This document shows positions 26,085 to 43,130 of a stretch of DNA of 64,000 nt, piece after piece (within the stretch, counting starts at the first letter, position 1; each line of letters starts with the position of its first letter). The DNA lies in contig OZ241362.1 in NCBI GenBank assembly GCA_965200315.1, forward strand, positions 3,584,001 through 3,648,000, written 5' to 3'. The notes beneath the pieces were generated by a model. That model saw only the letters and a list, made by a program, of their open reading frames with translations, searched no databases and was not told the DNA's origin. The DNA is from Candidatus Latescibacterota bacterium. GTDB taxonomy: Bacteria; Latescibacterota; UBA2968; UBA8231. Made by a program: the position numbers and the translations under genes.

Positions 26085-26714
26085 CCCAACGGTGATATAC
26101 ACGTCGAAGCCCTCGACGCGAATGATGGTAGGCCCATCGCCGCCTTCGCCGCTGCTGGTGCGCGTTGGACGGCTGGTAAAGTCCTCGCTGAACAGGCGGG
26201 TGGCGTCGGTGTAGTCATAAACGCGGAACATCAGCTTATTGGTCGGTTCATCTATGCGTGTCCCTCGACCTGCTCGCGAGGTATGGGCAAGCCTGTGATA
26301 GCATCTATCGGGTTGCGCTTCATAATGTCGTCTATGGTAAGGCCGGTGTCGTCGAGGTTGACGCGCCCCTTTTGGATTTCGCAGGCGGCCAGATAGCCGT
26401 CCTCAATGCCTTGAACGCTCCATGACGGCGCGAATGGCGGCGTCCTGATAGTAGCGGCGGGTGCCTTCGCCGCCTGAGTAGGGCTGCAATAGAGGGCGAG
26501 CGGCGGGTGATTCGAGGGCAAAACCGATGCCTTGTTCGTACCGGGTACGTAACTCAATCTGGCCGCGCTTGCGACGACCACTGACAGGCTCAACGGCCCC
26601 AGCAGTCTCCTCGCGTCGGATGTGGTCTTCTGTCCAGCCGCGCTTGTGAATGGCCGGATCGATGAGCTTGGCTCTGGTATCGGCTTCGCTGAAGTTCATT
26701 TGTGCCGCGTCCAT
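26085..26714 (-). pseudogene. hsdR: Type I RM restriction subunit eroded by multiple internal deletions
   Basis: Fragments in different frames: SEADTRAKLIDP..GW, RYYQDAAIRAV, QGIEDGYLA, GTRIDEPTNKLMFRVYDYTDATRLF. Confidence 0.8.
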
Positions 26715-26735
26715 TCTGCGCTATCTTGCTCTCGC

Positions 26736-27038
26736 ATGGAAAACACATACTTCGTCCCGACCGACGCCGAGCACATCGCTCGCGAGAAGAACAAGGCCAA
26801 AATGCTGCGCCGCTCCGAGTGGTGGAAGCGCAGACGGGCCGCTGGCCAGTGCCACTACTGCCAGCAGTCGTTTGCCTCCGAGGAACTGACCATGGATCAC
26901 GTGGTGCCCCTCATCCGCGGCGGCCGCACCACCAAATCCAACGTGGTCCCTTGCTGCAAGCACTGCAACAGCCAAAAGCAGCACCGGCTCCCCATCGAAT
27001 GGGCGGCCTATCTAGCGCGGCTGCGCGACGAAAGCTAA
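26736..27038 (+). CDS. Small HNH endonuclease
   Basis: CHYC, TMDHVVPL.RGG, NVVPCCKHCNSQK. Confidence 0.9.
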   Translation: MENTYFVPTDAEHIAREKNKAKMLRRSEWWKRRRAAGQCHYCQQSFASEELTMDHVVPLIRGGRTTKSNVVPCCKHCNSQKQHRLPIEWAAYLARLRDES

Positions 27039-27041
27039 AAG

Positions 27042-27983
27042 CTAGTGATAGTCCACAATGTCAGCTATAGCCGCGGCCACTTCCGCGGCCACTTCCGCCG
27101 GCACTCGCGGATTGAACGGGCCACCCTCGCCGCCATCCACATCGCTGAACCCCCCCAAGTGCATGGTCTCGACCACGGCTGAATAGTTGTACATGCGGCC
27201 ATCGCGGAAGCGAATTCCCTCTAGAGCCGCAAGCTTGTCTTCAATCTGCTGCGACGTCGCAAAATCGCCCCGGCGCTGGGCGTTGTTGAGCTCGTCTGAG
27301 GCGCGAGCAAAGGCCACGTTAATTCCCGACGTATGCCCTTTGGTGCCGCGCTCGGCCGGCCCAGTCGAACGATCTCCCACACCCCAAATCACCAGCGCAG
27401 CCCCTTCTTCCACACCCGCGACAATCGGCTCAACATCCTCGACCGTGGTGCCGATCTTAAGCCCGACGAAGTGCTCGGACTCGTTCATCAGCCGCACGGC
27501 TATGTCGCGCTCGGCTTGGTTGCGCAGGTAGTAGAGCAACTTGGCTCCGCATGAACGCCCCAGCCGCTCGGCGAGGTCGAGGTGATAGGCAAAAATGCCC
27601 TCTGGACTGGCCACGCCGGTAAGCGGCATGACGAGATAGACATCCGGGGGATATTCGAGCGCGGCCTCTCGCTCGATCAACCGCTCGGCATCCCCCACCG
27701 GATTGGGGGCAATCCCGGCCATCAGCACCCCGCGCCGCCCCATCTGCTCGCCGGTAAAGCCCAACAGCCGCACTTGCTCGTCCGCGCTAATGTGGTGGAT
27801 CAAGCTGGTCCCGGCGATGCCAATCACCCGGGGCCGGCCGCCCTCTAGGTGATTTTTTTCCATCAAGTAGTTGATGTTCTTGGCGTGGGCGTCGTAGTCG
27901 ATTTGTCCGCCGCGAAAAGGGACCACCGGGATGGAGGTAACCGAGTTTAGTGCGGCGAGTAGGTCTTCTTTTTGCAATGGCAT
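27042..27983 (-). CDS. Divergent DHDPS/NAL-family TIM-barrel lyase
   Basis: IPVVPF..IDY, degenerate AGTS loop, YYLR, GLKIG (Schiff-base Lys). Confidence 0.65.
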   Translation of the reverse strand: MPLQKEDLLAALNSVTSIPVVPFRGGQIDYDAHAKNINYLMEKNHLEGGRPRVIGIAGTSLIHHISADEQVRLLGFTGEQMGRRGVLMAGIAPNPVGDAERLIEREAALEYPPDVYLVMPLTGVASPEGIFAYHLDLAERLGRSCGAKLLYYLRNQAERDIAVRLMNESEHFVGLKIGTTVEDVEPIVAGVEEGAALVIWGVGDRSTGPAERGTKGHTSGINVAFARASDELNNAQRRGDFATSQQIEDKLAALEGIRFRDGRMYNYSAVVETMHLGGFSDVDGGEGGPFNPRVPAEVAAEVAAAIADIVDYH

Positions 27984-28016
27984 ATTTAACCTCAACTGTG
28001 TTAGGTGGTGATGAAT

Positions 28017-29090
28017 TCAACGCTCGGGCGCGAAGCGGCGCATGTCGCGCCCCGGAGTTCCCGCGGCGATCCAGCGGGCGATGATTTGGCCGGTGATCGG
28101 GCCTAGCAAGACGCCGTTTTTGTAGTGCCCAGAGGCCACGAAAACCCGCGGCGCATCCGTCAGCGGGCCGATGAGCGGACGCCCACCTCGGGGCTTGGGC
28201 CGCAGACCGGCCTGCTGGCGCGACAGCGGCAAAGATATTCCCAGCGCGGAGCGCACCTCCGTGGCGAACTCCGCCGCGGCCGCACGGGTTGTTTCCAGCC
28301 GAAAGCCGACCTCCTCCACCGTCGATCCCACGATCATTTCACCGCCGTCTGGAATGAAGTGGCGTCCGTTTATCCTCACTAGGTGGCGCAGCGGAGCACC
28401 GACAAAACGGGCTTGTTGGCCCCGCACCGGGCGCAGCGCAATTGGGGCACCGAGCTGCGCTGCCAAGCCGCCAGTCCACGCGCCAGACGCCAAGACCGCA
28501 AAGTCGGCGCGGTGGGTCCCGCGAGTAGTCGCGATCTCCACGGCCTCGCCCTCTTGGGCAATGCGCCAGACGCGCTCGCCCCAAGCGGCGGATGCGCCCT
28601 GCCGTACGGCCGCCGCCCAAAGTGCCGCGCCCAACTTGAAGGGGTCCACCCGGTGATCGTCGGCAAAATACAGCCCCTCGCCGCCGTCCAACCCCGGCTC
28701 CGCATTGCGCAAGGCCCGCTCGTCGAGCCGCTCGACCCGACAGCCGCGCTCGCGGTTGAAGCACCATACCTCCTCTAGCTGGGATGCGTCGGCAAAAAGT
28801 TCGATGCCGCCAAGGGGACGCCAGCCCACGTCTGCTCCTAGGTCTTCGGCTAGGTCGCGGGCCAGCCGAGTGTGCAAAGCGTGGCCGTCGCGGAAAAGCT
28901 GGGCGTAGGGATTGTCGCCGCCGTTGCAGTGAGTGAGGACGCCCAAAGAGGCCCGGCTCGTAGGCGAGCCTGCGGGGATGCCCTCGTCGAGCAGGACGAC
29001 CTTTGCGCCTTGCCGGGCGAGGAAATAGGCGGTCGAGCGGCCAATGATACCGGCCCCGACCACCAACACGCACGCGCCCGTCAGGGCCAT
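28017..29090 (-). CDS. FAD-dependent glycine/D-amino-acid oxidase (ThiO/DadA-like)
   Basis: GAGIIG, PVRGQ, GSTVE, AGLRP, GHYKNGVLLGP. Confidence 0.85.
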   Translation of the reverse strand: MALTGACVLVVGAGIIGRSTAYFLARQGAKVVLLDEGIPAGSPTSRASLGVLTHCNGGDNPYAQLFRDGHALHTRLARDLAEDLGADVGWRPLGGIELFADASQLEEVWCFNRERGCRVERLDERALRNAEPGLDGGEGLYFADDHRVDPFKLGAALWAAAVRQGASAAWGERVWRIAQEGEAVEIATTRGTHRADFAVLASGAWTGGLAAQLGAPIALRPVRGQQARFVGAPLRHLVRINGRHFIPDGGEMIVGSTVEEVGFRLETTRAAAAEFATEVRSALGISLPLSRQQAGLRPKPRGGRPLIGPLTDAPRVFVASGHYKNGVLLGPITGQIIARWIAAGTPGRDMRRFAPER

Positions 29091-30260
29091 CTAGCGACCG
29101 ACGATCGGCGGCAGGTTGGTCGCCGGGCAGGCGCGGGGGCCTTGGACTGGATAGCCCATATCCGCGAGGACGCAGTTGATTTGGGCCTCTAGCTTGATCA
29201 GGTACTCCTGTTCGTACGCGCTGCTCGACGCACGCGCTGGGCCTACGTCAAAGCCGCGAGCCGCCACGCCGGTCTTAAAGCCCTCTGGGAAGTTGACCCC
29301 GAGGAGCATCAAGTTGATGAGATCGAGGATGCGGTATTGCAGTTCGCGGGCCCGCTCGATGTCGCCGCTTTTGGCCTTTTCATACAGCTCGACGATCACC
29401 TCCGGGACGATGCCCGAGGTGGCGATGGTCCCCCCACTGGCACCCATGAGCACCGCGGGAAATACGATCTCCTCGCAACCGGTCAGCACCACGTAGTCGG
29501 GGCGCTGTTGGCGCAGGCGGTTCATGGTGTTGAGCAGTCGCGGCAGGTCGCGGCTGGAGTCCTTGGTCCCGCAGAGCCGCTCGTAGGGCAAGAGCCGCTC
29601 CAGCAAATCTATCGACAGCTCTTGGGTAAATCGCGGAATATTACACAGCAGGATGTCCAGCGGCGATTCTTCGGCGATTTCAGCGAAGTACTCGAAGAGG
29701 CTCTCGGTGGAAATCTCGTAGTAATAGGGGGGCATCAGCGCAATGGCATCCACGCCGAGTGAGGCATAGTATTCGGCCATCTTGAGCACGTCGCGCAAGT
29801 TGGCCTCGCCGGCTCCGGCCAGTACGGGTACACGGCCCTTGTTAACCTCGCAGACCAGTCGCACCACGTCTTGGCGCTCCTCCGGCGACAGGCGTGCGAA
29901 CTCGCCCGTGCTGCCGTTGGGGTACAGCCCATGGATCCCGACCTCGATCAGCCAGTTGATGTAGCGCTCCATCTCGGCGTGGTTGATCTCGTTCTGGCGG
30001 TCGAAAAGGACGACATTGGGGCAGAAGATGCCAGCAAATGCCTGGCGGCCGGCGGCGCGAGGCACTGCTGGTGCCGGTGCTGGCGTTGGGGTGGCTTGGC
30101 GGTCAGCCTCCCGGCGGACGATCTCAACGCCTTGGACGCGCAAAAAATCCTGCGCCGAGGGCGTCAGCTTGGACCCCGGGCCGATTTCGACCTCCCGTGC
30201 GCCAGACAGGCGACCCTCCAAGGTCTGAGCGGTAATTACAGCGTCGTCAATCCGAACCAT
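29091..30260 (-). CDS. DHDPS/NAL-family aldolase with N-terminal BMC-associated domain
   Basis: NGSTGEF, PPYY, CNIP, KDSS; ~70-aa N-terminal extension VITA..LTPSAQDFL plus Pro/Ala linker. Confidence 0.85.
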   Translation of the reverse strand: MVRIDDAVITAQTLEGRLSGAREVEIGPGSKLTPSAQDFLRVQGVEIVRREADRQATPTPAPAPAVPRAAGRQAFAGIFCPNVVLFDRQNEINHAEMERYINWLIEVGIHGLYPNGSTGEFARLSPEERQDVVRLVCEVNKGRVPVLAGAGEANLRDVLKMAEYYASLGVDAIALMPPYYYEISTESLFEYFAEIAEESPLDILLCNIPRFTQELSIDLLERLLPYERLCGTKDSSRDLPRLLNTMNRLRQQRPDYVVLTGCEEIVFPAVLMGASGGTIATSGIVPEVIVELYEKAKSGDIERARELQYRILDLINLMLLGVNFPEGFKTGVAARGFDVGPARASSSAYEQEYLIKLEAQINCVLADMGYPVQGPRACPATNLPPIVGR

Positions 30261-30274
30261 TTTTCGAGTCCTCG

Positions 30275-31423
30275 CTAAACGTGCGGCAGGCGGCCTTCGA
30301 GGCCGCTGTAGGGCTGCGGAATGGCGTAGGCCGAGGCCAGCTCTCCGTGGGCGATGGCCTCCTGCCGGCCCGCCTCTATGGCGACCTGCACGGCACCGAC
30401 ATCGCCGCGCACGACGGCGGCCGTCAAGTAGTACCCCACCTTGTAGGCCCCTTCGTATTCGACGGCCGCGGCCTTGAGCATTCGATCCACGGCCCGCACC
30501 AAGGCCACGGTGCTGCGCGTCTCAATCAGCCCCATCGCCTGCCGCGCACCCGAGCCCAAGCCCTCGGCCGCGGTGGCAAAGCGGGCGACTAACGAGGAAT
30601 CGGGCCTAGAGACTACGGCCGAGGCGTCGAGCTCGCCCAAGGCCGTGGCGGCCGCAACACCAGCGCGTACCGCAGCCTGCACATCGTCGAGCTGACCGGT
30701 AGCCAGCGCGGCAATTCGCCCGCCGCTGCCAATGCTCAAGCGCTCGATTTGGACATCCGCAGCCTTGAGCATGGCGTCCGCACTGCCTACGACCGCCGCG
30801 TAACCAATGGTCTCTATGAGGCCCAAGGCACCGGTAGAGCGCGGCGCAGCCGCTGGCGCGGGCGGCAACAGAGGGCCTAGCCCCTCGCTGGGCTGAGGCA
30901 AAACGAGGGTCGCGTACACGGTGCCGATCCGCTCGGCTGCTTGTCGGCCGACTTCTAGCGCCGTCTGCACGGCCGCCACATCGCCAAAAACGGGCGCGTG
31001 ACACAGGGCACCGCCGATGAAGGCCCAACCCCCTAGCTCCACTTGCGCGGCCTTGAGCATGGCGTCGGCACCGGCCACCAGAGGCGTCAGGCCCTGCGTC
31101 TCCAACAGACCAATCGCCCGCGGCTGGACCTGCTCGGCACCGAGGCCGGTCGCATGGGGCATGGCATCCACGGCGCGCGCATCCGGCCGCGGCACCACTT
31201 GTGCGCCAATCAGTTCACCGGTGCGGTTCGCCTCTACCTCGCCAACGCGAATGGCCGCCTCTACATCAGCCACTTGGCCGGCGATTACTGCGGTGAGCCA
31301 ACCCGAGCCAATCCCGTGCCGGCCGCAAAGTCGCACCTCAGCGGCCTTGAGCATGGCATCGGTAGAAGCCATCAGCGACGCCATGCCGCGCGTCTCCAGT
31401 ACACCGATTGCCCCGCTAGACAC
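30275..31423 (-). CDS. BMC shell protein with four tandem BMC domains
   Basis: Four repeats of G(L/V)(L/I)ET..D(A/R)MLKAA..G.V..V..A..(P/S)(R/Q)P. Confidence 0.88.
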   Translation of the reverse strand: MSSGAIGVLETRGMASLMASTDAMLKAAEVRLCGRHGIGSGWLTAVIAGQVADVEAAIRVGEVEANRTGELIGAQVVPRPDARAVDAMPHATGLGAEQVQPRAIGLLETQGLTPLVAGADAMLKAAQVELGGWAFIGGALCHAPVFGDVAAVQTALEVGRQAAERIGTVYATLVLPQPSEGLGPLLPPAPAAAPRSTGALGLIETIGYAAVVGSADAMLKAADVQIERLSIGSGGRIAALATGQLDDVQAAVRAGVAAATALGELDASAVVSRPDSSLVARFATAAEGLGSGARQAMGLIETRSTVALVRAVDRMLKAAAVEYEGAYKVGYYLTAAVVRGDVGAVQVAIEAGRQEAIAHGELASAYAIPQPYSGLEGRLPHV

Positions 31424-32000
31424 CGCCCCCTCCCATCGGCATGGCGTATGCGGCCAAGACCTCGGGCCGCGGCTGTGGGATCAGGGCCGTGCCCAGCAAG
31501 CGCTCGCAGCCCGCGAGCAACTTTTGCGCGACAGCTATGGCTTCGGTGACGGCCCCTATGTCTCCCAAGACCAGCGAACACACCACGCGGTCGTGGACCG
31601 TCAGCACATTGATTACCTCGACGGCAGCCGTCTTGACCATCTGATCGTTCGTGTAAATGTGGGCCCCGTAGCCGCGCGTCTCGACCAACCCTAGGGCACC
31701 AGCGGGAAAGTCGCTGTCGGAGCGGAGCGGAAAATCGACGAAATGACTGCAGGCGGCGGCAGGTTGATGGAGAGGCACGGCCACTACGTGTTCTACCACG
31801 CTGCGGGCCGCTTCTTCACCGCTTTGCAGCGCGGCCGCCACATCGCTGATTGACCCGGTGAAAAAAGCCGTGGTATAGCCGCCGATTGACGCCCAACCCG
31901 CGAGCTTTATGTCCGCGGCCTTGCAGGCCGCATCCGCACCCACAATGGCCGCGGCCACGCCCGCCACCTCGATCATGCCGACTGCCGGGTCGCCCGCCAT
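31416..32000 (-). CDS. Tandem (two-domain) BMC shell protein
   Basis: GMIEVAG..DAACKAA and GLVETRG..DQMVKTA..IPQP; overlaps the start of the next gene. Confidence 0.85.
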   Translation of the reverse strand: MAGDPAVGMIEVAGVAAAIVGADAACKAADIKLAGWASIGGYTTAFFTGSISDVAAALQSGEEAARSVVEHVVAVPLHQPAAACSHFVDFPLRSDSDFPAGALGLVETRGYGAHIYTNDQMVKTAAVEVINVLTVHDRVVCSLVLGDIGAVTEAIAVAQKLLAGCERLLGTALIPQPRPEVLAAYAMPMGGGGV

Positions 32001-32003
32001 AGC

Positions 32004-32432
32004 TCAGTCTGCCAGCCGGTGAACGACTAGCTCGGTGATCTGCTCAATTAAGGCTTCTGGATCGGTGGCTCGGCCCTGCTCGATTTGTTGCAAAAGCGTC
32101 TTGTAGCGGTTGCAACCCTCGCAACTCGCCTCCGGGTCGCCCGCCTGCTTGCGCTCGTGGACGGCGCAATCGCCACAGTGCGCCGGCTCGACGTACCCCG
32201 AGCCAAATTCCTCGTGCTGGCAGCCACAGGCGCGGTCGGGATGCTCGCACCGGCCCGCGTCCGCAACGGCCTCGCCGCGACTTAGCTGCAAGCGGTGCTG
32301 GCGGATGTAATCCCAAGCCGTTGGCGTCAAGATGGCGCTGGGGGCTACGCTGAGCATCCGCTCGCCCTTGTGCTCGCGCCCGAGCAAATCGCCAGTGACG
32401 ACCGGGGCACCAATGTGCAAAGCCTCAGCCAA
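32004..32432 (-). CDS. BMC-associated Cys-rich protein with putative C-terminal encapsulation peptide
   Basis: [15 protein letters not shown] domain; CEH..ACGC..HCGDC..CEGC; [17 protein letters not shown] amphipathic helix. Confidence 0.7.
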
Positions 32433-32688
32433 TATGGTCTGTCAACCCCTCAACCGGGCGGGGAATCACGTGGACGCTGCGCAGCTCGCCGATGCGCTGG
32501 GCGGCTTGCGCTCCTGCATCTACGGCCGCTTTGACAGCCGCTACGTCGCCTTCGACCAGCACGGCGATTAGGCCACTGCCCACGCGCTTTTGGCCCGCAT
32601 AGCTCACGTCGGCGGTCTTCAACATGGCGTCGAGGGCTTCGACGACGCAGACCAGACCGCGGGTTTCGACCATGCCCAATGCTTTCAT
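32425..32688 (-). CDS. BMC-H hexameric shell protein (PduA/EutM-like)
   Basis: [39 protein letters not shown]. Confidence 0.95.
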
Positions 32689-32704
32689 TATTTATCTCCT
32701 CTAC

Positions 32705-33265
32705 CTACAAGTACAGCGCGATGAGATCGTCGTGGGGGCGGGGAATCACGTGCTGCGACACGAGCTCGCCCACGCGCTCAGCCGACTCAGCGCCGGCACT
32801 GACTGCAGCCTGCACCGAGCCGACGTCGCCGCTGACCATGGCGGTGATGTACCCGCCGCCGATGTCTTGGAGCTTGACGACCTCCACATCGGCGGCCTTG
32901 CTCATGGCGTCGGCTGCTTCGATCACGCCGATGGATCCCTTCGTCTCAATGAAGCCCAAGGCGCGAGTGCGGCCATCGCGGTCGCCGCGGTCACCGCACT
33001 CGGGCACGACGGCCGTCAACTCGCTGTGCGGGCGGGGAATCACGTGGACCGAATGCACCTCTCCGACCTTGGCCGCCGCGGTCGAACCAGCATCCACGGC
33101 CGACTTGACGGCCGCCACATCGCCCGAGCAAAACACGGTCACCAAGCCGGAGCCAACTCTATCCCAGCCCAAAAGCTGTACGCTGGCGGCCTTGGCCATG
33201 GCGTCGCCGGCCTCGACGACCCCGACCAGCCCCACAGTTTCTACCATACCTATTGCATCCGACAT
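32705..33265 (-). CDS. Tandem (two-domain) BMC shell protein
   Basis: Two canonical PduA-like domains, each ending HVIPRPH. Confidence 0.92.
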   Translation of the reverse strand: MSDAIGMVETVGLVGVVEAGDAMAKAASVQLLGWDRVGSGLVTVFCSGDVAAVKSAVDAGSTAAAKVGEVHSVHVIPRPHSELTAVVPECGDRGDRDGRTRALGFIETKGSIGVIEAADAMSKAADVEVVKLQDIGGGYITAMVSGDVGSVQAAVSAGAESAERVGELVSQHVIPRPHDDLIALYL

Positions 33266-33302
33266 CCCTTACCTCCTGAAGTAATTGTGCGGATTTTTGC
33301 GT

Positions 33303-33974
33303 TCAACGCTCCAAATATACCTTGCGGGCGTGTACCAAATCAATCGCATTGCCCTCGTCCGTGTCGATGTGAACTTCTAGACGCTCGCGGTCGCTGACTC
33401 GGCAGATTAGGCCTTCCAGCACCCCGCCCTGATCGCCTTCTACTACCAGCCGCAGCAAGTCCCCCGGGCCGACCCCGTAGTACGCAGCCTCGGCCGGGTT
33501 TAGATGCACGTGGCGGGCGGCCCGAATCACCCCGCGATCCAATTCCAGCCCTCCGGCCGGCCCCACCAAGTAGCAGCCCGGCGTCCCCTCGACGTTGCCG
33601 CTGAGCCGCACCGGTGCGTCAATGCCCAAAAAGCGGGCCTCCGTAAAGGCCAGCTCCACTTGGTTGTAAGCGCGCAATGGGCCGAGGATGCGGACATTGG
33701 GAATCACCTGCTTGCGCGGGCCGAAAACCGCCACCGTCTGCTCGGCGGCAAAAGCCCCTTCTTGGTACAGGGCCTTCTGCACGGTTAGCTTGGCACCCGC
33801 GCCGAAGAGCGCGTCGAGGGCCTCTTGGTTGAGGTGGACGTGGCGGGCGGACATATTGACGACCAGCCTCGGGGCCGGGGGTGCCTGCTCTAGCTGAGCG
33901 TCGGGCAAATGATCGTACACCACCCGGCGCACCAACGCCTCAATCTGCTGGCGGTCCAATCTAGCCGCTTCCAT
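33303..33974 (-). CDS. pduL: PduL phosphotransacylase with N-terminal encapsulation peptide
   Basis: SARHVHL, RILGPLR, RLSG, ARHVH, HIDTDEGNA; QIEALVRRVV helix. Confidence 0.93.
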   Translation of the reverse strand: MEAARLDRQQIEALVRRVVYDHLPDAQLEQAPPAPRLVVNMSARHVHLNQEALDALFGAGAKLTVQKALYQEGAFAAEQTVAVFGPRKQVIPNVRILGPLRAYNQVELAFTEARFLGIDAPVRLSGNVEGTPGCYLVGPAGGLELDRGVIRAARHVHLNPAEAAYYGVGPGDLLRLVVEGDQGGVLEGLICRVSDRERLEVHIDTDEGNAIDLVHARKVYLER

Positions 33975-33977
33975 TGC

Positions 33978-34292
33978 CTACCTCTCGCGGCTCAGTTGCC
34001 GACAGTCGAAGTCCTTGCCCATAGCCTGTAGCGAATCGACGATCCCGACGATTACCGCGTCGGTTGGCACATCACCCAAGTTCGGGGCGATCCGCGACGA
34101 GCTGCCCTGCACCAAAATCACCAACTCGCCCTTGCCAGCTTGCACCGCGTCGATGCAGACCATATCCCGCCCGGTCAGCACCAGACCATGCTCGCGCACC
34201 GACGCGATTTCGACCACTAAGAGTTTCTTGCCGTGCAGGCTCGGGACCTTGGCCGTGGAAACCAGATGCCCTTTGACTTGGCCCAAGAGCAT
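33978..34292 (-). CDS. eutN: BMC-P vertex protein (EutN/CcmL)
   Basis: G.V.G.LVST.K, KLLVV, DAVQAG.GE.V, GSSSR, DAVIVGIVD. Confidence 0.93.
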   Translation of the reverse strand: MLLGQVKGHLVSTAKVPSLHGKKLLVVEIASVREHGLVLTGRDMVCIDAVQAGKGELVILVQGSSSRIAPNLGDVPTDAVIVGIVDSLQAMGKDFDCRQLSRER

Positions 34293-35698
34293 CAGGTGAT
34301 GCGGAAGTAGTCCACGAGGGCGCAGCGGCGCTGGCGGGTAAAGGTGCGCGGCGACGTCAGCCCCTCGCCCGTAGGCCCGGCGATGGAGTACGTCCCAAAG
34401 CCCTCGCCGCCCAAGCCAACCCCGGCGTAGGAAGGACCGTTCTTGACGAAAATGGTGGTATCCACGGCGCGGGCCATGTTGTGCATGTTTTCGATGTTGC
34501 GCGAATGGATCACGGCCGTGTGCCCGTAGCCGTGCTCGGAGATGACGGCCTCGCGGATGGCTTGGTCAATGCTGGGCACACGCACAATCGGCAGAAAGGG
34601 CATCATCTGCTCCTCGCGCACGAAGACATGGTTGGCGTCCGTCTCGCCAACGAGCATGCGCAGCGACGAGTCGAGCCGCAGGCCGATGCGCTCGCCCAGC
34701 ACGGCAGCGTCGCGCCCCACCAACTCGCGGTTCGCTGCGAGATGCCCGTCTGGCCCTGTGCCAAAGGCCACCTGCGCGAGGGCCTCGATCTGCCGCGCAT
34801 CGAGCTCGTACGCGTTGTATTGGACCATCTGCCGCTTGAGCTCGTCGGCAATGGAAGCGACGGCAAAGACTTGCTTCTCGCCGATGCAGAGGATGTTGTT
34901 GTCGAAGGCCCCCCCGTCGATGATGTCGCGTGCGGCCTTGGCCAAATCGGCCGTTTCATCGACGACCACGGGCGGATTGCCCGGCCCGGCGATGATGGCC
35001 TTTTTGGGGCTGCCCAGCGCGGCCTTGGCCACGCCCGGCCCGCCGGTGACCAGCAGGAGGCAGATGCCCGGGTGGTTGAACAGTTCGTTGGCCGTCTCAA
35101 TGGTCGGCGTTTCGACCGCGGTTACTAAGTTGGCCGGCCCGCCAGCCGCGCCGATGGCTTGATTGATCAAGCCCACCGCGAACATGGAGACCTTTCTACC
35201 CGCCGGATGTACGTTGAAGACGACTGAGTTGCCGGCGGCGACAATGCAAATGGCGTTGTTGACCATCGTCGGCACGGGATGCGTCGATGGAGTAACCGCG
35301 CCGATGACCCCGTAGGGAGCCATTTCGACTACGGTCAGCCCGTGATCGCCGGTCCACGAAATCGCCTCTAGGTCTTCGACGCCGGGCGTGGTGTCGGCCG
35401 CGACTTGGTGCTTGATGATCTTGTCGTCCAATCGCCCCATGCCCGTCTCGGCCAAGGCTCGCCGCGAAAACTCCTCGGCGTGGGCGTACGCTGTCTGCCG
35501 CAGGGCCTCGACGATCTTTTTGCGCTCCTCCAGCGACAAGGCGACCAACTGCTGCTGGGCGCGGGTCGCGCCTTGAACGGCCGCGTCAATCGTCGCGAAG
35601 ACCCCAGTGTCCCCGCCCTCGCTGCCACCGCTGACGACGCGCTGCACCACTTCTTCGACTATTTTGCGTACGTGTTCTTCGCTGACATTTTGGGACAC
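34292..35698 (-). CDS. CoA-acylating aldehyde dehydrogenase (EutE/PduP-like) with N-terminal encapsulation peptide
   Basis: PYGVIGAVTPSTHP, TGGPGV, GPGNPPVVVD, FDNNILCIGEK, EQMMP, PTGEG; VRKIVEEVVQRV helix. Confidence 0.93.
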   Translation of the reverse strand: MSQNVSEEHVRKIVEEVVQRVVSGGSEGGDTGVFATIDAAVQGATRAQQQLVALSLEERKKIVEALRQTAYAHAEEFSRRALAETGMGRLDDKIIKHQVAADTTPGVEDLEAISWTGDHGLTVVEMAPYGVIGAVTPSTHPVPTMVNNAICIVAAGNSVVFNVHPAGRKVSMFAVGLINQAIGAAGGPANLVTAVETPTIETANELFNHPGICLLLVTGGPGVAKAALGSPKKAIIAGPGNPPVVVDETADLAKAARDIIDGGAFDNNILCIGEKQVFAVASIADELKRQMVQYNAYELDARQIEALAQVAFGTGPDGHLAANRELVGRDAAVLGERIGLRLDSSLRMLVGETDANHVFVREEQMMPFLPIVRVPSIDQAIREAVISEHGYGHTAVIHSRNIENMHNMARAVDTTIFVKNGPSYAGVGLGGEGFGTYSIAGPTGEGLTSPRTFTRQRRCALVDYFRIT

Positions 35699-35838: not shown

Positions 35839-36642
35839 ATGCGCATCATCCGCTTTATCGACGCTGACGACGCCGTCCGGTGGGGCCTCAAAGCCGAGGG
35901 CGGCCAAGCCTCCGTTCTCGCCGGCGATATCTTCGCCGAACTAGTGCCGACCGGCGAACAAGTGTCCGTCAAAAGACTGCTCGCTCCGCTGGCCCCGACC
36001 AACATTTTCTGCATTGGGCTAAACTACCGAGAGCACGCGGCCGAATCCGGCCTCGAACCGCCCGAGCAGCCCGTCGTCTTTGCCAAGCCCACGAGCGCGG
36101 TCTGCGGCCCGGGCGACCCGATTTTGCTGCCAGCCTGCTGCCGCCGCGGCCCGGAAGTTGACTACGAGTGCGAGCTCGCGGTGGTAATCGGCAAGGCCGC
36201 CCGCAATGTGGCGCGGGCCGACGCCCTCAGCTACGTGCTCGGATATACGTGCGCCAACGACGTCTCGGCCCGCAAGTGGCAGCTCCACGGCGGCGGCGGC
36301 CAGTGGATCCGCGGCAAGGGCTTTGACACCTTTTGCCCTTTGGGACCGGTGCTGGTCACAGCCGACGAAATCCCCGACCCGCAAACCCTCGGCATCCGCA
36401 CGATCCTCAACGGCGCGACCATGCAGGACCACACCACCGGCGACATGATCTTCACGGTCGCCGAACTGATCGAATTCCTCAGCCAAGATACGACCTTGCT
36501 GCCGGGCACGGTCATCCTCACCGGCACTCCGCAGGGCGTGGGTTTTGCGCGCAAACCTCCCGTGTGGCTCGCAGCCGGCGACGAGGTCATCGTCGAAATA
36601 GATCAGATCGGCCAATTGCAAAACCCGGTGGAAGCGGCCTAG
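35839..36642 (+). CDS. Fumarylacetoacetate hydrolase family protein
   Basis: IGLNYREH, DYECEL, NDVSAR, GKGFDTF, TGTP.GVG. Confidence 0.92.
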   Translation: MRIIRFIDADDAVRWGLKAEGGQASVLAGDIFAELVPTGEQVSVKRLLAPLAPTNIFCIGLNYREHAAESGLEPPEQPVVFAKPTSAVCGPGDPILLPACCRRGPEVDYECELAVVIGKAARNVARADALSYVLGYTCANDVSARKWQLHGGGGQWIRGKGFDTFCPLGPVLVTADEIPDPQTLGIRTILNGATMQDHTTGDMIFTVAELIEFLSQDTTLLPGTVILTGTPQGVGFARKPPVWLAAGDEVIVEIDQIGQLQNPVEAA

Positions 36643-36645
36643 CGC

Positions 36646-36966
36646 TCACGCTTCCTTGAACATTCCGAAGGCAAAGGCTTCGGGTAGCTCCTCAAAGATA
36701 ATCTCCCCCTCGTCGTCGGTCTCCAACAACTGGGCCATGTAGTCGTACCATTTTTCTAGGATGGGAACTTGGCGGCTCTTGAGCCAGTGTTCCTCGGTCG
36801 GGGCGACCGCGTGGATGACGAGGTGTTCGCCCAAGCGGTAGATAGCCATGCTGACCTCGTTGTCGGTCATGCTGTCGGCGATTTCGGGCCACAGGTCGTC
36901 GTGGGCCTGTTTGTACTCGGCGTACGCATTGGGGCGCAGCCGCATGGCCAAGCCAATTGAATACAT
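36646..36966 (-). CDS. rhaM: L-rhamnose/fucose mutarotase family
   Basis: EYKQAHDDLWPE motif, KWYDYM, 106 aa. Confidence 0.75.
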   Translation of the reverse strand: MYSIGLAMRLRPNAYAEYKQAHDDLWPEIADSMTDNEVSMAIYRLGEHLVIHAVAPTEEHWLKSRQVPILEKWYDYMAQLLETDDEGEIIFEELPEAFAFGMFKEA

Positions 36967-38087: not shown

Positions 38088-38255
38088 ATGCTCAGCCCTA
38101 CGCCGGCAGTCAAGTTCACCTATCTATGAGGATTATCAGCACACCCCGGATGACCGGCGCTACGAGTTATTGGCTGGATGGAGGTACTCTTGAGGTGGTG
38201 CCTGTACGGCGAAAGACTGACGATGGTCTCGCCGTTGAATCTAAACGAGATTTTT
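38088..38255 (+). pseudogene. Uma2-family endonuclease remnant
   Basis: MLSPTPAVKFTY, 4-bp duplication (ctat), then EDYQHTPDDRRYELL..DG; the core is deleted. Confidence 0.6.
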
Positions 38256-38328
38256 GGGGTGTGAGGAGGCATTCAAAAGAGTGCCGCCATGCACAGCATA
38301 TAGTGATCACCCTACAAAGGAGGAAATC

Positions 38329-40971
38329 ATGCCTAGCCCAAAATCATTACAACAGATCTGCCGCAATACTTTGCCGCTGATGTTGCAGCAGGCAAATGGG
38401 CAGGAAATGATGGCGGCGGTGCGAGATGTGGCACAAACCGATCGCTGGAATTCGTTTGACCGCTTCGGCGAAACGACCGCCACGCTAACTAGCCGCTACG
38501 AGGCCACTGGCGCACGCGTGGAGGTCGAATCCATCCAGACCGGAGGGCGGCTGGGGTCGGGCCGGTGGATCATCCGCGAGGCCGCCGATGTCGCGGGTGC
38601 GACCGTGGATGTGGTACATCCGCTCGCCGAGCGGGTGCTGGATTGGCAGGAGAATCCCTGGCACGTCATTCAGTGGAGCGCGGCGACCCCGGCGAGCGGC
38701 TTGCGGCTGCGGCTCGTGATTCTCGACCAAATCGAAGACATCCAACGCCAGCCAACCGACGGACTCACCAGTGCGATTGTGCTGACCAAGCTAGATCCGC
38801 GTGCCCACCTAGGTCTTTTGGCCGCCAAGGGGGCCGCCGCCGTCATCACCGACCGTTTGGTTCCCAATCTGCCCAAGGCAGTGGCGTGGACCAAATTCGG
38901 ATGGGGTGCCATTCCCCTCGAACATGCGGCGGCGCGGTTGGTGGGTTTTGTGATCTCTGAGCAACAAGGGAAGCGGTTGCGCCGGCTAGCGCAGCAGCGC
39001 GGCCCCCTAACCCTGCACGTAAGAGCCGACATCCGCAAATACGTCGGCAGTCACGACGTGGTCAGCGGCATCATCGAGGGAGCAGGCGATCCGCAGGACG
39101 AAGTGTGGGCCATCGCGCACAGCGCCGAGCCGGGGGCCATAGACAACGCTTCGGGCGTGGCCACCACCTTGGAGATCGCCCGCGTGATCGAAGGGCTTAT
39201 CCGGGCGGGCAAACTCGTGCGCCCCAAGCGCACCATTCGCCTGCTCAATGCCTATGAGTGCTACGGGTTCTTCGCCTATCTAGAGAGGGTGCGGCGCTTG
39301 CAGACCCCTTTGGCCGGCGTGTGTATCGACACAGTCGGCTCCCAGCCCGCCATCTGCGATGGCCGGCTGGAGTGGCACGCGACCATCCCCATGTCGTCAG
39401 GTTTTGTCGATCGAGTCGGTGCGGCTATCTTACGGGCCGGAGTGCGGCAACACAAGCCTCGCTATCGAGTGCATCTAGAGCGATTCATGTCGACGGCTGA
39501 CACCTTGATCGGCGATCCCCAGTACGGATTTCCCTGCCCTTGGATCACCACGCATCACCTCAAGAGCGGGCGCGGCTTCGACGCCTACCACTCCTCGGCC
39601 GATGTGGAAGCACTGCTCAGTCCGCGGGGGCTGGAGACCTGCGCGGCCTCAATGGCAGCCTATCTGTACTACTTGGCCGACATGGGCAGCCGCGAAGTGG
39701 GGGAGTTGGTCCGCACTGAGACCCAGCATTTTCTCTCCGTATTACAACAGAAAAAGCGACCCCGAGCCGAGGCCGAGTACGTGCGCGAGGCACACAGCCG
39801 CAGCGTGCGACGATTGGTGCGCTGGCTCTGGGGAGGCAGTCGGCGCGAGGTCTTGGAGGCCATGGACGAAAGCGAGCGGCAAGTGGCGACCGCCGCAGCC
39901 GAAACCGCGCTACCGGACAAGCGAGCGCGGCGCACGGCCCAAGCGCGGCTAGTGCCACGGCGCACGGCCGTGCTCTCACCGACCAGCGAAAACACGCCAG
40001 CCGCGGTCAATGCGCGCATCTCGGCTGCACAGCTACCGCCGTGGGCGCTGTTTTGGGCCGATGGACGCCGGAATTTAGGCGAAATCGCCGAGTGCATTGC
40101 CTGCGAGGAAGCCGACTATCCGGCCGGGCCGCGGACGGAAGGGCCCGTCGCTGTTGATCGGGTTCACAAGTACTTTGCAGCACACGCTGAATTGGGCTAT
40201 GCCGAGTTGACCGACCCGGCTAACATGCTCGGCCGCAGGGAACTAGTGAAGGATTTGCGCCGCTTGGGCGTCACCCCAGGCATGGATCTGATGGTCCACA
40301 GTTCCCTGTCGGCCATCGGCTCTGTCGAGGGCGGCGCTGAGACCGTCGTCGATGCGCTCTTGCAGGCGGTTGGCAAGCGCGGGACCCTGCTGGCACCTTC
40401 GTTCAATCACCGCACGGCGAAAGTCTTCAACCGGCTGACCACGCCCACCACCAACGGCACCATCCCGGACGCGCTGTGGCGGCGCACCAAAGCCGAGCGC
40501 AGCATGCATCCCACTCACGCGGTAGCGGCGATTGGTCCGCGGGCCAGCGATTATTGCCGAGGGCACCTCGAAGCCGGCATCTGGGCTCCAGATAGCCCGA
40601 TCGGCAAATTGGTACACAGCGGCGGCTACATTCTCGCGCTGGGCACGACGCACGATACGAGCACGGCCTACCACGTGGCCGAGATGTCCGTGCCCTGCGG
40701 CTGCATTGAATCCTTTGCAATTCCAGACCGCATCGTGCGCGACGACGGGACCGTGGACGAGGTCTTGGGGCTGGCCTTTCGCAGCGGCCCCTGCCCGGTT
40801 CCAACCCACAAGCTAGACTCCACCCTCGACCGGAGGAAGTTGCAGCGGCGGGGCAAGGTCGGGCAGGCCGAATGCGAATTGGTAAAGGCCCACGACCTGT
40901 GGCAGGTGCGGCGCGAACATCTGCGGCGCGTCTGTCCCACTTGCGCCGTCAAGCCCCAGACCGCACGGTGA
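38329..40971 (+). CDS. Fusion: M28/DUF4910-like peptidase domain plus AAC(3)-family N-acetyltransferase
   Basis: AHSAEPGAIDNASG, E, YHSSAD in the N-terminal part; LMVHSSLSAIG.VEGG, RSMHPTH, TAYHVAE in the C-terminal part. Confidence 0.8.
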   Translation: MPSPKSLQQICRNTLPLMLQQANGQEMMAAVRDVAQTDRWNSFDRFGETTATLTSRYEATGARVEVESIQTGGRLGSGRWIIREAADVAGATVDVVHPLAERVLDWQENPWHVIQWSAATPASGLRLRLVILDQIEDIQRQPTDGLTSAIVLTKLDPRAHLGLLAAKGAAAVITDRLVPNLPKAVAWTKFGWGAIPLEHAAARLVGFVISEQQGKRLRRLAQQRGPLTLHVRADIRKYVGSHDVVSGIIEGAGDPQDEVWAIAHSAEPGAIDNASGVATTLEIARVIEGLIRAGKLVRPKRTIRLLNAYECYGFFAYLERVRRLQTPLAGVCIDTVGSQPAICDGRLEWHATIPMSSGFVDRVGAAILRAGVRQHKPRYRVHLERFMSTADTLIGDPQYGFPCPWITTHHLKSGRGFDAYHSSADVEALLSPRGLETCAASMAAYLYYLADMGSREVGELVRTETQHFLSVLQQKKRPRAEAEYVREAHSRSVRRLVRWLWGGSRREVLEAMDESERQVATAAAETALPDKRARRTAQARLVPRRTAVLSPTSENTPAAVNARISAAQLPPWALFWADGRRNLGEIAECIACEEADYPAGPRTEGPVAVDRVHKYFAAHAELGYAELTDPANMLGRRELVKDLRRLGVTPGMDLMVHSSLSAIGSVEGGAETVVDALLQAVGKRGTLLAPSFNHRTAKVFNRLTTPTTNGTIPDALWRRTKAERSMHPTHAVAAIGPRASDYCRGHLEAGIWAPDSPIGKLVHSGGYILALGTTHDTSTAYHVAEMSVPCGCIESFAIPDRIVRDDGTVDEVLGLAFRSGPCPVPTHKLDSTLDRRKLQRRGKVGQAECELVKAHDLWQVRREHLRRVCPTCAVKPQTAR

Positions 40972-43130
40972 ACAGATCGCTCCCCTCTCCCTATGGCCGG
41001 CACCTCCAAGGTAGCCAAGACGACAAACTCACCGATGCCGCAGGCCGTTCGCATCTGACGCTGCGCGGCTTTTGGGTCGGCGCGTTCCTCAGCTTTTTTC
41101 TGTCCATTGGCGCGCCCTACGCCAACATGGCGATGCGGGCGACCAATATGGCCTTCGATTTCAATACTCCGGGGGCCATTTTTCTATTTTTGGTGCTGGT
41201 CGGCTTGCTCAATACGCTCTTCAAGCTCGCCGCCCGCGACTTCCGCCTAGCGGTGGGGCTGGCCCTGCTCGCCACGGGCGGCTTCTGCGGCTATTGGACC
41301 AGCCGCGGCATGGTCGATTGGTACTCGCCTGGCTTTTGGTTTGGGGCCTTCCTCGCCCTCTTTTCACTGTGGAACGTACCGGTGGTACAGCGCGGCGGTA
41401 CGCTCGCGCTCAACCGCGCCGAACTCGTGCTGGTGTACGCGATGTTGCTGGTCGTCTCCGCCCTCTGCACCATGGGGCTGACCCAGCAACTTTTGCCAGC
41501 TCTCACCGGCATTTTCTACTACGCCTCTCCAGCCAACCAATGGGCCGAAAAGCTCTTTCCGCTCTTTCCCTCGCGGCGCATCCTCGTCGATGATGGCACC
41601 GGCAACCGCGGCTTTTACGAGGGCGGCGCGCTCGCCGACATTCCCTACGCCACTTGGGTCGAGCCCCTGTGCTGGTGGGCACTGCTACTCCTCTCGCTGT
41701 ACGTGGCTATGGTATCGACGGCCGTGATCTTGCGCCGACAGTGGGTCGAGCACGAGCGGCTGGCCTATCCGCTGACCCAGCTCGGGGTGGCCATCGTGCA
41801 AGGCGAACGCGGCACCGGGCTGTTCAACGGCTTTCTCAAGCACGGTATCCTGTGGTGGGGCGCAGCCTTGCCGCTCGCGTACGGCAGCCTCAAGGCTCTG
41901 CACCAATACTACCCGTCCTTGCCCGGCTTCGGCCTGATTTGGTTTCTGCCGTTTATCGGCCAGCAAAACCTGCAAATCTGGATCAGCTTCGCGCTCGTCG
42001 GCTTTTCCTATCTCATTAGCACTCAAATAGCGGCCGGCATCTGGATCTTCTATCTGCTCTCCAAAGTAGAAGCCGAATTCCTCGCCCTATCTGGCCTCAA
42101 ATCCACTAGCAAATTCGTCTATGGGGTCTCGTACGAGCCGCTCTTGGCCTATCAGGGCGGCGGCGCGCTCATCGCCATGGTGCTCTTGGGGCTGTGGACG
42201 GGGCGCGTCCACTTGGGGAACGTATGGCGCAAGGCCCTCGACCGCCATGCTAACATCGACGACAGCGATGAAATCACGTCCTATCGAGCGGCCGTGATCG
42301 GAGTACTCTTCGGCACCGGAGGCATCGTCGGCTGGCTGTGGCTGATGGGCACCCCGCTTTGGGTCGGCGCACTCTTTGCGGTGGTGGCCCTGTTGGTGTT
42401 TATCGGCATCTCGCGGGTCGTGTGCGAGGCGGGCCTAGCAGCCATCCGCTCGCCCATGATCGCCCCAGACCTCATCGTGCAGGGCATTGGCTCACAGACG
42501 ATCGGTGCCGCTGGCGTTTTCAACCTCTCCTTTGCCTATATCTGGTCGGCCGACATTCGCATCTTCCTGCTGGCCATGGTCGCCAATGGCTTGAAGCTGA
42601 TCCAAAACATGGACCGCCGCAGTCGGCGAGTCGTCTTCTGGGCGCTGGTGGCGGCCATCTTCATCGGCGTGACGGGCTCCTGCTGGATGGTCTTCCACCT
42701 CGCCTACAAGTACGGGGGCATCAACCTCGATGGCTGGCGTTTTCACGGCGGCCCATCGACCATCTACAACGCGGCGCGACGCGCACTAGAACCAGCCGGA
42801 GCCGACTGGTTGGGCTTGGGGTTTTTCGCTGGTGGAGCCGTGGTCATGGTCCTTTTGACTTGGGCGCGGCATCACGTCTTGTGGTGGCCCTTCCATCCAA
42901 TCGGATTCCCGATTGGCGCAAACTTCATGCTCGACAAAATCTGGGCTTGCGTACTCTTGGCTTGGGTACTGAAGAAGCTGATCTTGCGTTTTGGCGGAGC
43001 GGCGCACTATCGGACGAGCCAGCATTTCTTCATGGGTATGATTATGGGCGAGGCCCTGTGCAACGGGCTGTGGCTGGTCATCGACTACTTCACCGGCAGG
43101 GTCGGCAACGCCGTCTTCATTCTGGGGTAA
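40968..43130 (+). CDS. Large polytopic membrane protein (DUF6785/DUF6784-like, putative peptide transporter)
   Basis: LNRAELVLVY, RRQWVEHERLAYPL, WWPFHPIG, FFMGMIMGE; many TM segments; GTGA coupling. Confidence 0.7.
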   Translation: MNRSLPSPYGRHLQGSQDDKLTDAAGRSHLTLRGFWVGAFLSFFLSIGAPYANMAMRATNMAFDFNTPGAIFLFLVLVGLLNTLFKLAARDFRLAVGLALLATGGFCGYWTSRGMVDWYSPGFWFGAFLALFSLWNVPVVQRGGTLALNRAELVLVYAMLLVVSALCTMGLTQQLLPALTGIFYYASPANQWAEKLFPLFPSRRILVDDGTGNRGFYEGGALADIPYATWVEPLCWWALLLLSLYVAMVSTAVILRRQWVEHERLAYPLTQLGVAIVQGERGTGLFNGFLKHGILWWGAALPLAYGSLKALHQYYPSLPGFGLIWFLPFIGQQNLQIWISFALVGFSYLISTQIAAGIWIFYLLSKVEAEFLALSGLKSTSKFVYGVSYEPLLAYQGGGALIAMVLLGLWTGRVHLGNVWRKALDRHANIDDSDEITSYRAAVIGVLFGTGGIVGWLWLMGTPLWVGALFAVVALLVFIGISRVVCEAGLAAIRSPMIAPDLIVQGIGSQTIGAAGVFNLSFAYIWSADIRIFLLAMVANGLKLIQNMDRRSRRVVFWALVAAIFIGVTGSCWMVFHLAYKYGGINLDGWRFHGGPSTIYNAARRALEPAGADWLGLGFFAGGAVVMVLLTWARHHVLWWPFHPIGFPIGANFMLDKIWACVLLAWVLKKLILRFGGAAHYRTSQHFFMGMIMGEALCNGLWLVIDYFTGRVGNAVFILG

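Follow-up and report, generated by a model that had tools for sequence, protein, structure and literature searches.

A class I lyase encoded in a MUF2 microcompartment locus of Latescibacterota may share its organelle with a remotely encoded class II aldolase

Two types in the 2021 catalogue of bacterial microcompartments (BMCs; Sutter et al. 2021, Nat Commun 12:3809; PMC8217296) are close to the locus described here. One is MUF2, a metabolosome of unknown function that the catalogue text places among the types without an obvious signature enzyme in the locus. The other is the PVM type, which the same text connects with the catabolism of fucose and rhamnose and which has a class II aldolase for its signature enzyme. 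We analyzed a window of 64,000 nucleotides from a Candidatus Latescibacterota bacterium (contig OZ241362.1, positions 3,584,001 to 3,648,000), in which eleven minus-strand genes at 27042-35698 encode a BMC shell, an acylating aldehyde dehydrogenase (AldDH), a PduL-type phosphotransacylase (PTAC), a Cys-rich protein, an FAD-dependent oxidoreductase of the DAO family and two members of the dihydrodipicolinate synthase/N-acetylneuraminate lyase (DHDPS/NAL) family, here called DHDPS1 and DHDPS2. Class I aldolases for 2-keto-3-deoxy sugar acids occur in the DHDPS/NAL family, and the L-2-keto-3-deoxyfuconate aldolase of anaerobes is one of them. The best explanation of our data, to which we give a probability of roughly 0.45, is that MUF2 is a metabolosome derived from a PVM-like ancestor with a class II aldolase, and that DHDPS1 and a class II aldolase encoded far from the locus would both supply AldDH and PduL with an aldehyde, most likely lactaldehyde.

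The type of the locus was established through a relative. In what follows L-numbers denote loci of relatives and G-numbers their genomes; the window's own genome, G000, comprises 5.36 Mb and is 94.7% complete. Locus L035 is syntenic with the window for all 11 genes at 67-97% identity. Its BMC-T protein (192 residues; MBN59993.1, locus tag CME20_01425) is 74% identical to a BMC-T of the window, and in the shell-tree file of the catalogue CME20_01425 is listed as bmcType=MUF2 (main), clade Ts_hazel. Because the syntenic locus contains this catalogued shell gene, the window locus is assigned to MUF2 by orthology, and a reading made earlier from the sequence alone, which took it for a new type of metabolosome, was not borne out. 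An AldDH and a PTAC without a signature enzyme named in the locus are features that the window shares with the catalogue's entry for MUF2. The catalogued type MIC6 had been considered on account of the DAO and 2Fe-2S protein in its list of hidden Markov models (HMMs), and was ruled out since the orthologous locus is typed MUF2; the literature matched under the name MIC6 was mitochondrial throughout. In a literature search the MUF2 microcompartment was mentioned solely in the 2021 catalogue and its preprint. A search joining bacterial microcompartment with dihydrodipicolinate synthase gave nothing related by title and the start of the abstract, and the passages retrieved from the Latescibacteria literature describe other loci and not the present operon.

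The eleven genes are tightly packed, with spacing from an overlap of 8 bases to a gap of 37 bases, and a Pfam family was matched for 10 of the 11 proteins. These matches, together with those in NCBIfam, confirmed the gene list of the sequence-only reading. The core pair of a metabolosome is present at the locus. AldDH (34292-35698; Pfam Aldedh) scored 647 bits with PRK15398 (cut-off 403), and among solved chains it is nearest to 5jfl and 4c3s, both AldDHs of BMCs (E about 1e-130); PduL (33303-33974; Pfam PTAC, PF06130, E 7.3e-65) scored 221 bits with PRK15070 (cut-off 209). Both proteins begin with an amphipathic helix, which in AldDH resembles an encapsulation peptide; this and the other terminal helices considered here, those of PduL, the Cys-rich protein and the class II aldolase, were judged by eye. 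The shell classes of a metabolosome are also all present. PF03319 (EutN_CcmL) was found in one gene, that of the BMC-P pentamer (vertex) protein (33978-34292, E 7.8e-24), and PF00936 in four genes with 1, 2, 2 and 4 domains. These encode the BMC-H hexamer protein (32425-32688, Pfam BMC, E 3.6e-26), a BMC-T with two standard BMC domains in tandem (32705-33265), a second BMC-T matched over two stretches (31416-32000), which is the orthologue of the L035 protein and represents the MUF2 marker clade Ts_hazel, and a shell protein with four BMC domains per chain (4xBMC; 30275-31423).

The 4xBMC protein, which all MUF2 loci have, is a single chain in which linkers of about 20 residues separate four standard BMC domains. 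A search of 1.84 billion cluster representatives gave, among the best 150, only two of about 385 residues that align over most or all of the 4xBMC chain, and several chains of about 290 residues resemble three-domain forms. The phrase "four BMC domains" was absent from the papers that a text search listed. Contigs from four metatranscriptomic libraries of one study cover the whole locus, and a single contig of 11.3 kb spans all of it; from contigs of this kind neither transcription nor strand nor operon ends can be read, and differences in depth between DAO/DHDPS2 and the rest are not interpretable. Neither diol dehydratase nor ethanolamine lyase nor a glycyl-radical enzyme was found at the locus or in its flanks, a genome-wide search for them not having been made. 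The list of absent enzymes given by the sequence-only reading holds for the locus and its flanks but not for the genome, where a class II aldolase and an acetate kinase are encoded elsewhere.

A scan of species-representative genomes identified 34 loci. All 11 genes were found in the same order in 28 of these and in 10 of 80 metagenome loci; the six other genome loci comprise the variants L037 and L039 and otherwise cut contigs, and the remaining metagenome loci are mostly cut contigs. Because the same eleven-gene order recurs in this number of loci, it is far from chance. More than 120 full-length homologues of DHDPS1 at 65-94% identity were present in databases, belonging to Latescibacterota wherever the source was named. 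DHDPS1, DAO and DHDPS2 each occur in 18/18 genomes of the window's genus and in none of 12 genomes from two other families of the same class. Wherever a locus has both 4xBMC and DAO, the DHDPS1 gene lies between them in 30/30 genome and 23/24 metagenome loci. In L037 and L039 it stays with BMC-T/4xBMC and is followed by different genes, with DAO and DHDPS2 unmatched on the stretch covered; a 345-residue gene following DHDPS1 in L039 was tried as a counterpart of DAO or DHDPS2 and is unrelated to either. The constant place after 4xBMC and the retention with the shell genes in these two variants tie DHDPS1 to the shell part of the locus.

DHDPS1 (29091-30260; Pfam DHDPS, PF00701, E 7.6e-59) carries a further link to the organelle. 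Its first 55 residues form a separate N-terminal domain (N-domain; 30093-30260), which is followed by a Pro/Ala-rich linker and recurs at the N-terminus of the Cys-rich protein (32004-32432; 142 residues, seven of them Cys; no Pfam or NCBIfam family). Neither the N-domain nor the Cys-rich protein gave a Pfam match even at E up to 10. An N-domain profile from 117 DHDPS1 homologues was run against the whole genome translated in six frames. It detected two carriers, DHDPS1 with E 4.5e-29 and the Cys-rich protein with E 5.2e-10, and no others, the next match having an E of 1.4. A joint profile of both families gave 173 database matches at E <= 0.01. The 120 matches listed are either PF00701 proteins, mostly of about 390 residues and some shorter, or Pfam-less proteins of about 100-180 residues, one short protein among them bearing an unrelated Pfam tag.

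In an alignment of 19 sequences the Cys-rich protein resolved into three modules: the N-domain, a core and a conserved C-terminal amphipathic helix. The core has invariant C71, C86xxC89, C104xxC107 and EEFGSG and looks like a metal site. An AlphaFold2 model of the protein gave the N-domain a beta-alpha-beta-alpha-beta fold (pLDDT about 90) and a helix at 125-141. With this model Foldseek found nothing in the PDB at E <= 0.001; in an atlas search the best score was 0.85, to unnamed clusters, and a cluster with a EutQ fragment (0.78) serves as a lead only. We infer from this architecture that the Cys-rich protein is an adaptor or co-cargo. Encapsulation peptides of metabolosome cargo are short amphipathic helices, and terminal helices of this appearance are seen on the class II aldolase as well as on AldDH, PduL and the Cys-rich protein, whereas DHDPS1 bears instead a domain of about 55 residues that is predicted to be folded, as modelled on the Cys-rich N-domain. 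Taken with its position, this suggests that DHDPS1 is probably cargo of the organelle.

Alignment with E. coli DapA, YagE and NanA showed that DHDPS1 retains the GSTGE motif, the YY motif and the Lys of GTKDSS. GTKDSS aligned to the catalytic Lys region of DapA and NanA, and the Lys is nearly invariant among 20 homologues; we take these positions to have the Schiff-base and carboxylate-binding roles that they have in the relatives. Like the class I aldolases YagE and 4uxd (Picrophilus), DHDPS1 matches the Pfam DHDPS family over its whole catalytic domain and has the Schiff-base Lys and GSTGE, and it is also acidic at the sugar-binding GxDE position (GCEE). These two, YagE and the KD(P)G aldolase 4uxd, are its closest solved relatives (E about 1e-35). 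It differs from them in being only about 25-30% identical, with no family cut-off reached, and in having the added N-terminal domain, the linker and a conserved C-terminal tail. The best NCBIfam model was that of N-acetylneuraminate lyase (PRK04147; 164 bits, under the cut-off of 281).

The limits of the BMC part of the operon could be drawn from locus L089. This has LytB, FAH (minus strand), DAO, DHDPS2, HNH (minus strand), a Lon substrate-binding-domain protein and an Fe-dependent repressor, and no BMC gene; BMC genes excepted, its neighbourhood matches that of the window and L035. Because L089 has FAH, DAO and DHDPS2 without BMC genes, the stretch from AldDH to DHDPS1 behaves as a nine-gene cassette that either entered the chromosome between DAO and the promoter region of FAH or was lost in L089. 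DAO (28017-29090; PF01266, E 3e-56) and DHDPS2 (27042-27983; Pfam DHDPS, E 1.5e-7, 30.9 bits, cut-off 22.1) would then lie outside the BMC cassette, and both appear to be without targeting signals; no targeting peptide was seen on DAO. The FAH-family gene (35839-36642, plus strand; Pfam FAA_hydrolase) is divergent from the start of the operon and was found upstream of it in 24/25 genome and 5/8 metagenome loci. The closest solved relative of its product is HpcE (PDB 1gtt, 1.4e-64), followed by L-2,4-diketo-3-deoxyrhamnonate hydrolase (8gsr, 2.3e-53).

DHDPS2 is 313 residues long when read from the Met codon at 27983 (the open reading frame opens at TTG 27995), and its homologues also have 313 residues. 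In the alignment it keeps the Lys (GLKIG) and the Tyr and has AGTSLI for GxxGE and LT for the YY pair. The invariants of the family are AGTSLxHH, K176, Y151/Y152, GHTSG and GGPFNP, and because so many polar residues are invariant DHDPS2 does not look decayed. In metagenome loci collected with a DHDPS2 profile, homologues of at least 60% identity were always in the MUF2 order, with DAO before and HNH after, and those at 52-59% identity were outside BMC loci. The non-BMC homologues adjoin enolase-superfamily (MR_MLE) dehydratases (L092, L114 and three in L126), GFO/IDH/MocA dehydrogenases (L092, L115, L116), sulfatases with an FGE-like or BNR-repeat (sialidase-like) protein (L092, L116), a UxuA-like dehydratase (L116) and an ABC sugar transporter (L126); none of these loci had a match to DAO. 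Such a neighbourhood fits what would be expected for a 2-keto-3-deoxy-sugar-acid enzyme.

The second candidate source of aldehyde lies outside the window. Exactly one class II aldolase (PF00596) is encoded in the genome, at C1:404701-405423, 3.2 Mb from the locus. Its C-terminus, ...SDLVERITEEVLRQLR, is a helix like those of AldDH, PduL and the Cys-rich protein. Orthologues were found in 30 of 31 relatives, and the tail, set off by a variable linker, is present in 11/11 aligned orthologues, including families without DHDPS1. In the sister families G021 and G024 the aldolase is the last gene of an operon with the order PduL, BMC-H, BMC-H, BMC-P, AldDH, BMC-P, BMC-P, aldolase; the acetate kinase gene comes next in G024 and some 5 kb later in G021. 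The parts of this operon are those of the PVM column in the HMM table of the catalogue (PMC8217296). All of them are also in the window's genome: AldDH, the PduL-type PTAC, BMC-H, a BMC-P triplet at a satellite site beside LytB (1.128 Mb), the tailed class II aldolase and the only acetate kinase of the genome (C1:4473789-4474937). The arrangement differs from PVM in that the aldolase, the BMC-P triplet and the kinase are scattered and no class II aldolase is within the window locus, and in that this locus adds two BMC-T, 4xBMC, the Cys-rich protein and DHDPS1. Because the parts of the sister-family operon are scattered in this way, MUF2 looks like a rebuilt PVM-like organelle. A BMC-H gene adjoining the class II aldolase (C1:403300-403860; L130 7300-7860) differs from that of G013 by an insertion of 1 base and a deletion of 4 bases, which leave a remnant of 72 residues; it is likely a pseudogene in the window's genome. 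Reading a locus by itself can mislead, as the conventional signature enzyme may be encoded 3.2 Mb away.

Combining these observations, we propose the following scheme. The nine-gene cassette would comprise the shell (BMC-P, BMC-H, two BMC-T and 4xBMC), AldDH and PduL, the Cys-rich protein and DHDPS1, the last being a putative Schiff-base (class I) pyruvate lyase. The 55-residue N-domain, found otherwise only on the Cys-rich protein, would bring DHDPS1 into the lumen; docking of the pair to the shell would fall to the C-terminal helix of the Cys-rich protein. In the lumen DHDPS1 might cleave a 4-hydroxy-2-oxo (2-keto-3-deoxy) acid to pyruvate and an aldehyde. A ketose phosphate might be a further source of this aldehyde, or of a similar one, through the satellite class II aldolase, which bears a targeting-like tail of its own. 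AldDH would then form the acyl-CoA, PduL the acyl-phosphate, and the single acetate kinase ATP. DAO, DHDPS2 and the divergent FAH may represent an older module without targeting signals, which the cassette adjoins in the same orientation.

As to the aldehyde, several clues point to 6-deoxyhexoses and so to lactaldehyde: the PVM ancestry, the rhaM-like gene next to FAH, the second-best solved relative of FAH and one GH95 in the genome. The rhaM-family mutarotase-like protein (36646-36966, minus strand; Pfam rhaM, E 1.2e-14) is present in close relatives only and with 42.7 bits stays under the cut-off of TIGR02625 (99.6). L-lactaldehyde from 6-deoxyhexose derivatives is the most likely aldehyde, as a ranked guess, and this is the weakest link of the scheme. 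It is no more than ranked because these clues are offset by the absence of RhaA, FucI, GH29 and GH78, by the off-family score of the aldolase and by the equal distances of DHDPS1 from its relatives, all of which are given below.

A more specific form of the scheme, which we think rather unlikely in all its parts, is a metabolosome with two lyases. A PVM-like organelle would have gained a class I aldolase through a folded encapsulation domain of a kind not described before and a Cys-rich, metal-binding adaptor with an encapsulation peptide, so that a phosphorylated and a non-phosphorylated sugar route converge on one aldehyde in one shell; 4xBMC would stiffen this shell, and one clade would use a lyase with Cys for Tyr.

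A number of observations weigh against the explanation preferred here. The most serious concerns the active site of DHDPS1. Its YN[IV]P tyrosine, which we take to be the catalytic Tyr (DapA Y133 / NanA Y137), is replaced by Cys (TGT, 29643-29645) in the window. In 29 aligned coding sequences the position is Cys in 10 (the window and 9 relatives) and Tyr in 19. Loci L032, L033, L034, L037, L039 and L042 were left out of this alignment; a motif search in the omitted loci gave Cys for L033 and Tyr for L032, L034, L037 and L039. Among database homologues with the YN[IV]P motif the Tyr is present in 118 of 119. Nine of the Cys forms are in one clade (support 0.85), and the window branches nearby without support. 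Contigs from short-read RNA libraries of three runs showed no alternative letter over the Cys codon, and the median ratio of nonsynonymous to synonymous substitution rates (dN/dS) was 0.135 for 45 pairs of Cys forms, compared with 0.137 for 91 pairs of close Tyr forms. Because independent contigs have no other letter and dN/dS is this low, the change from Tyr to Cys is real and the gene is still under constraint, while the lyase activity of the window's own DHDPS1 is put in doubt.

Other points against the preferred explanation concern the rest of the scheme. DHDPS1 is about equidistant from KD(P)G aldolase, YagE, DapA and NanA, which weighs against naming a substrate. Its best paralogue in its own genome is 30% identical, so that there is no close non-BMC relative, and DHDPS2 and DAO have no paralogue in this genome at E < 1e-8; because of this no substrate can be inferred from paralogues. 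The class II aldolase is under every NCBIfam cut-off, its best model being 3-oxo-tetronate-4-phosphate decarboxylase (140 bits against 250). This 94.7%-complete genome gave no match to RhaA, FucI, GH29 or the six-hairpin domain of GH78, and no sugar dehydrogenase or dehydratase was found in or beside the locus. No member of the alcohol dehydrogenase family, as needed for recycling of NAD+, was found in the eleven genes or the flanks, a genome-wide search for one not having been made. In the MUF2-like metagenome locus L072 (2443-4689) 4xBMC is directly followed by DAO with no space for DHDPS1, and the Cys-rich protein is retained; DHDPS1 is thus missing while other MUF2 parts stay. Finally, DAO is conserved yet has no role in a sugar-acid route and is left unexplained. 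DHDPS1 is in any case not the sole candidate source of aldehyde for the organelle. The N-domain, the cassette and the neighbour context make it plausible that, as the sequence-only reading proposed, the organelle is fed by a class I aldolase. Weighing against this are the change from Tyr to Cys, the unexplained DAO and a class II aldolase that is encoded far away and has a targeting-like tail. That reading fares likewise as to the signature enzyme: the locus is of the known type MUF2, and a conventional BMC signature enzyme, the class II aldolase, is present elsewhere in the genome.

Part of this evidence could be explained if the satellite class II aldolase were the only source of aldehyde, as in PVM, with DHDPS1 either having a structural or assembly function together with the Cys-rich protein or condensing the aldehyde onto pyruvate. 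We regard this as doubtful. It would account for the place of the aldolase as last gene of the main BMC operon in G021 and G024, for its orthologues in 30/31 relatives and the tail in 11/11, and for the absence of DHDPS1 from L072, where shell, DAO and DHDPS2 are present. It would also account for the Cys form of DHDPS1 (10/29) being kept at a dN/dS of 0.135 compared with 0.137 in spite of the lost canonical residue, and it agrees with the place that the catalogue text gives MUF2 among types without an obvious signature enzyme in the locus. However, the Schiff-base Lys and the carboxylate motif of DHDPS1 are nearly invariant, which would be unexpected for a purely structural protein, and DHDPS1, DAO and DHDPS2 are all kept in 18/18 genomes of the genus. 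Neither FucI nor RhaA, the enzymes that usually act upstream, was found in the genome, and the BMC-H beside the aldolase has two frame-breaking indels here.

The architecture of the preferred scheme could also serve a different aldehyde: glycolaldehyde from 2-keto-3-deoxy-pentonates, glyceraldehyde from 2-keto-3-deoxygluconate or 2-keto-3-deoxygalactonate (KDG/KDGal), or an N-acetylhexosamine from a substrate like sialic acid. DHDPS1 is nearest to 4uxd and YagE, the E. coli yagE gene adjoins that of D-xylonate dehydratase, and the best NCBIfam model of DHDPS1 is that of N-acetylneuraminate lyase. A BNR/sialidase-like gene and sulfatases are near DHDPS2 homologues, and GH29 and GH78 were not found in the genome. 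Against this, no score reaches a family cut-off, and the PVM ancestry and the rhaM and FAH neighbours favour 6-deoxyhexoses. To our knowledge aldoses are poor substrates for the BMC AldDHs described so far. Any of these aldehydes seems quite unlikely.

DAO has a place in a third alternative. Its substrate would be an amino acid, D- or N-substituted, and its product a 2-imino or 2-oxo acid, from which a DHDPS-family enzyme would release the aldehyde for AldDH. The starting compound could be of the 4-hydroxyproline type, a gamma-hydroxy amino acid or an N-carboxymethyl compound, and the aldehyde alpha-ketoglutarate semialdehyde, glyoxylate, aminoacetaldehyde or formaldehyde. The DAO gene lies against that of DHDPS1 and ahead of that of DHDPS2 in all MUF2 loci examined, and in the window the gap to DHDPS1 is 0 bases. 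DAO is closest to glycine oxidase ThiO, and its best solved relatives are glycine oxidases (PDB 4ysh and 1ryi, E about 1e-29 to 1e-30); it keeps the arginine of GLRP, which, like the roles of the other pocket residues, we presume to correspond to glycine oxidase, where it binds the carboxylate of the substrate. All DHDPS-family enzymes known to us act on 2-oxo acids, which are products of amino-acid oxidases. The HMM table of the catalogue (PMC8217296) couples DAO with a small Fe-S protein also in type MIC6. We nevertheless hold an amino-acid route to be improbable. DAO remains under the ThiO cut-off (TIGR02352, 167.2 bits against 250.8) and differs from glycine oxidase at two pocket positions, DAO and DHDPS2 are without targeting signals and also occur without the BMC cassette in L089, and the non-BMC relatives of DHDPS2 have sugar-acid neighbours and no DAO. 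The hydroxyproline version, suggested by a bacterial pathway made up of the same three families (DAO-family, DHDPS-family and aldehyde dehydrogenase enzymes), is disfavoured, as the proline racemase/hydroxyproline epimerase family (PF05544, which includes 4-hydroxyproline 2-epimerase) was found in 0 of 31 genomes, 19 of them with the locus and the window's own included.

The surroundings of the operon gave several further observations. An HNH endonuclease-domain gene (26622-27038, plus strand; Pfam HNH_5) is convergent with the end of the operon, and the HNH gene is convergent to DHDPS2 in each MUF2 locus examined. It follows DHDPS2 in syntenic loci down to 52% identity, the cassette-less L089 included, and this constant position may reflect inherited gene order or a functional link. 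Between 20393 and 26714 the window has a GC content of 0.48-0.55, compared with about 0.62 around it, and encodes a PcfJ-like protein, an N6-methylase fragment, three TIR/ThsB-like proteins, an 8xMP membrane protein and a fragment of a type I restriction-modification specificity subunit. Because in L035 and L089 HNH is almost directly followed by the Lon-like/unnamed gene and the Fe-dependent repressor, this stretch looks like a defence island inserted beside the operon.

At 38254-43130 a 905-residue M28 peptidase fused with an aminoglycoside 3-N-acetyltransferase-like protein is followed by a DUF6785/DUF6784 protein, and this pair is kept upstream of the locus in close relatives. The first 14 kb of the window have two enolase-superfamily genes, two PhyH dioxygenases and an N-methyltryptophan-oxidase-like DAO. 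The whole genome has twelve matches to PF00701, and elsewhere in it a lone BMC-H of 149 residues (C1:2267737-2268186; L131 7738-8187) is situated between a GFO/IDH/MocA oxidoreductase and small unnamed genes and adjoins a DNA methylase and an Mrr-like nuclease.

Among the catalogued microcompartment types, MUF2 belongs to those to which neither a substrate nor a signature enzyme has been assigned. The present analysis provides it with handles that can be tested: a class I aldolase that is a candidate cargo, a rare shell protein with four domains and an evolutionary path along which a PVM-like operon may have become MUF2. The N-domain and the Cys-rich protein are a candidate new targeting domain and adaptor, and could possibly be of use in the loading of engineered shells.

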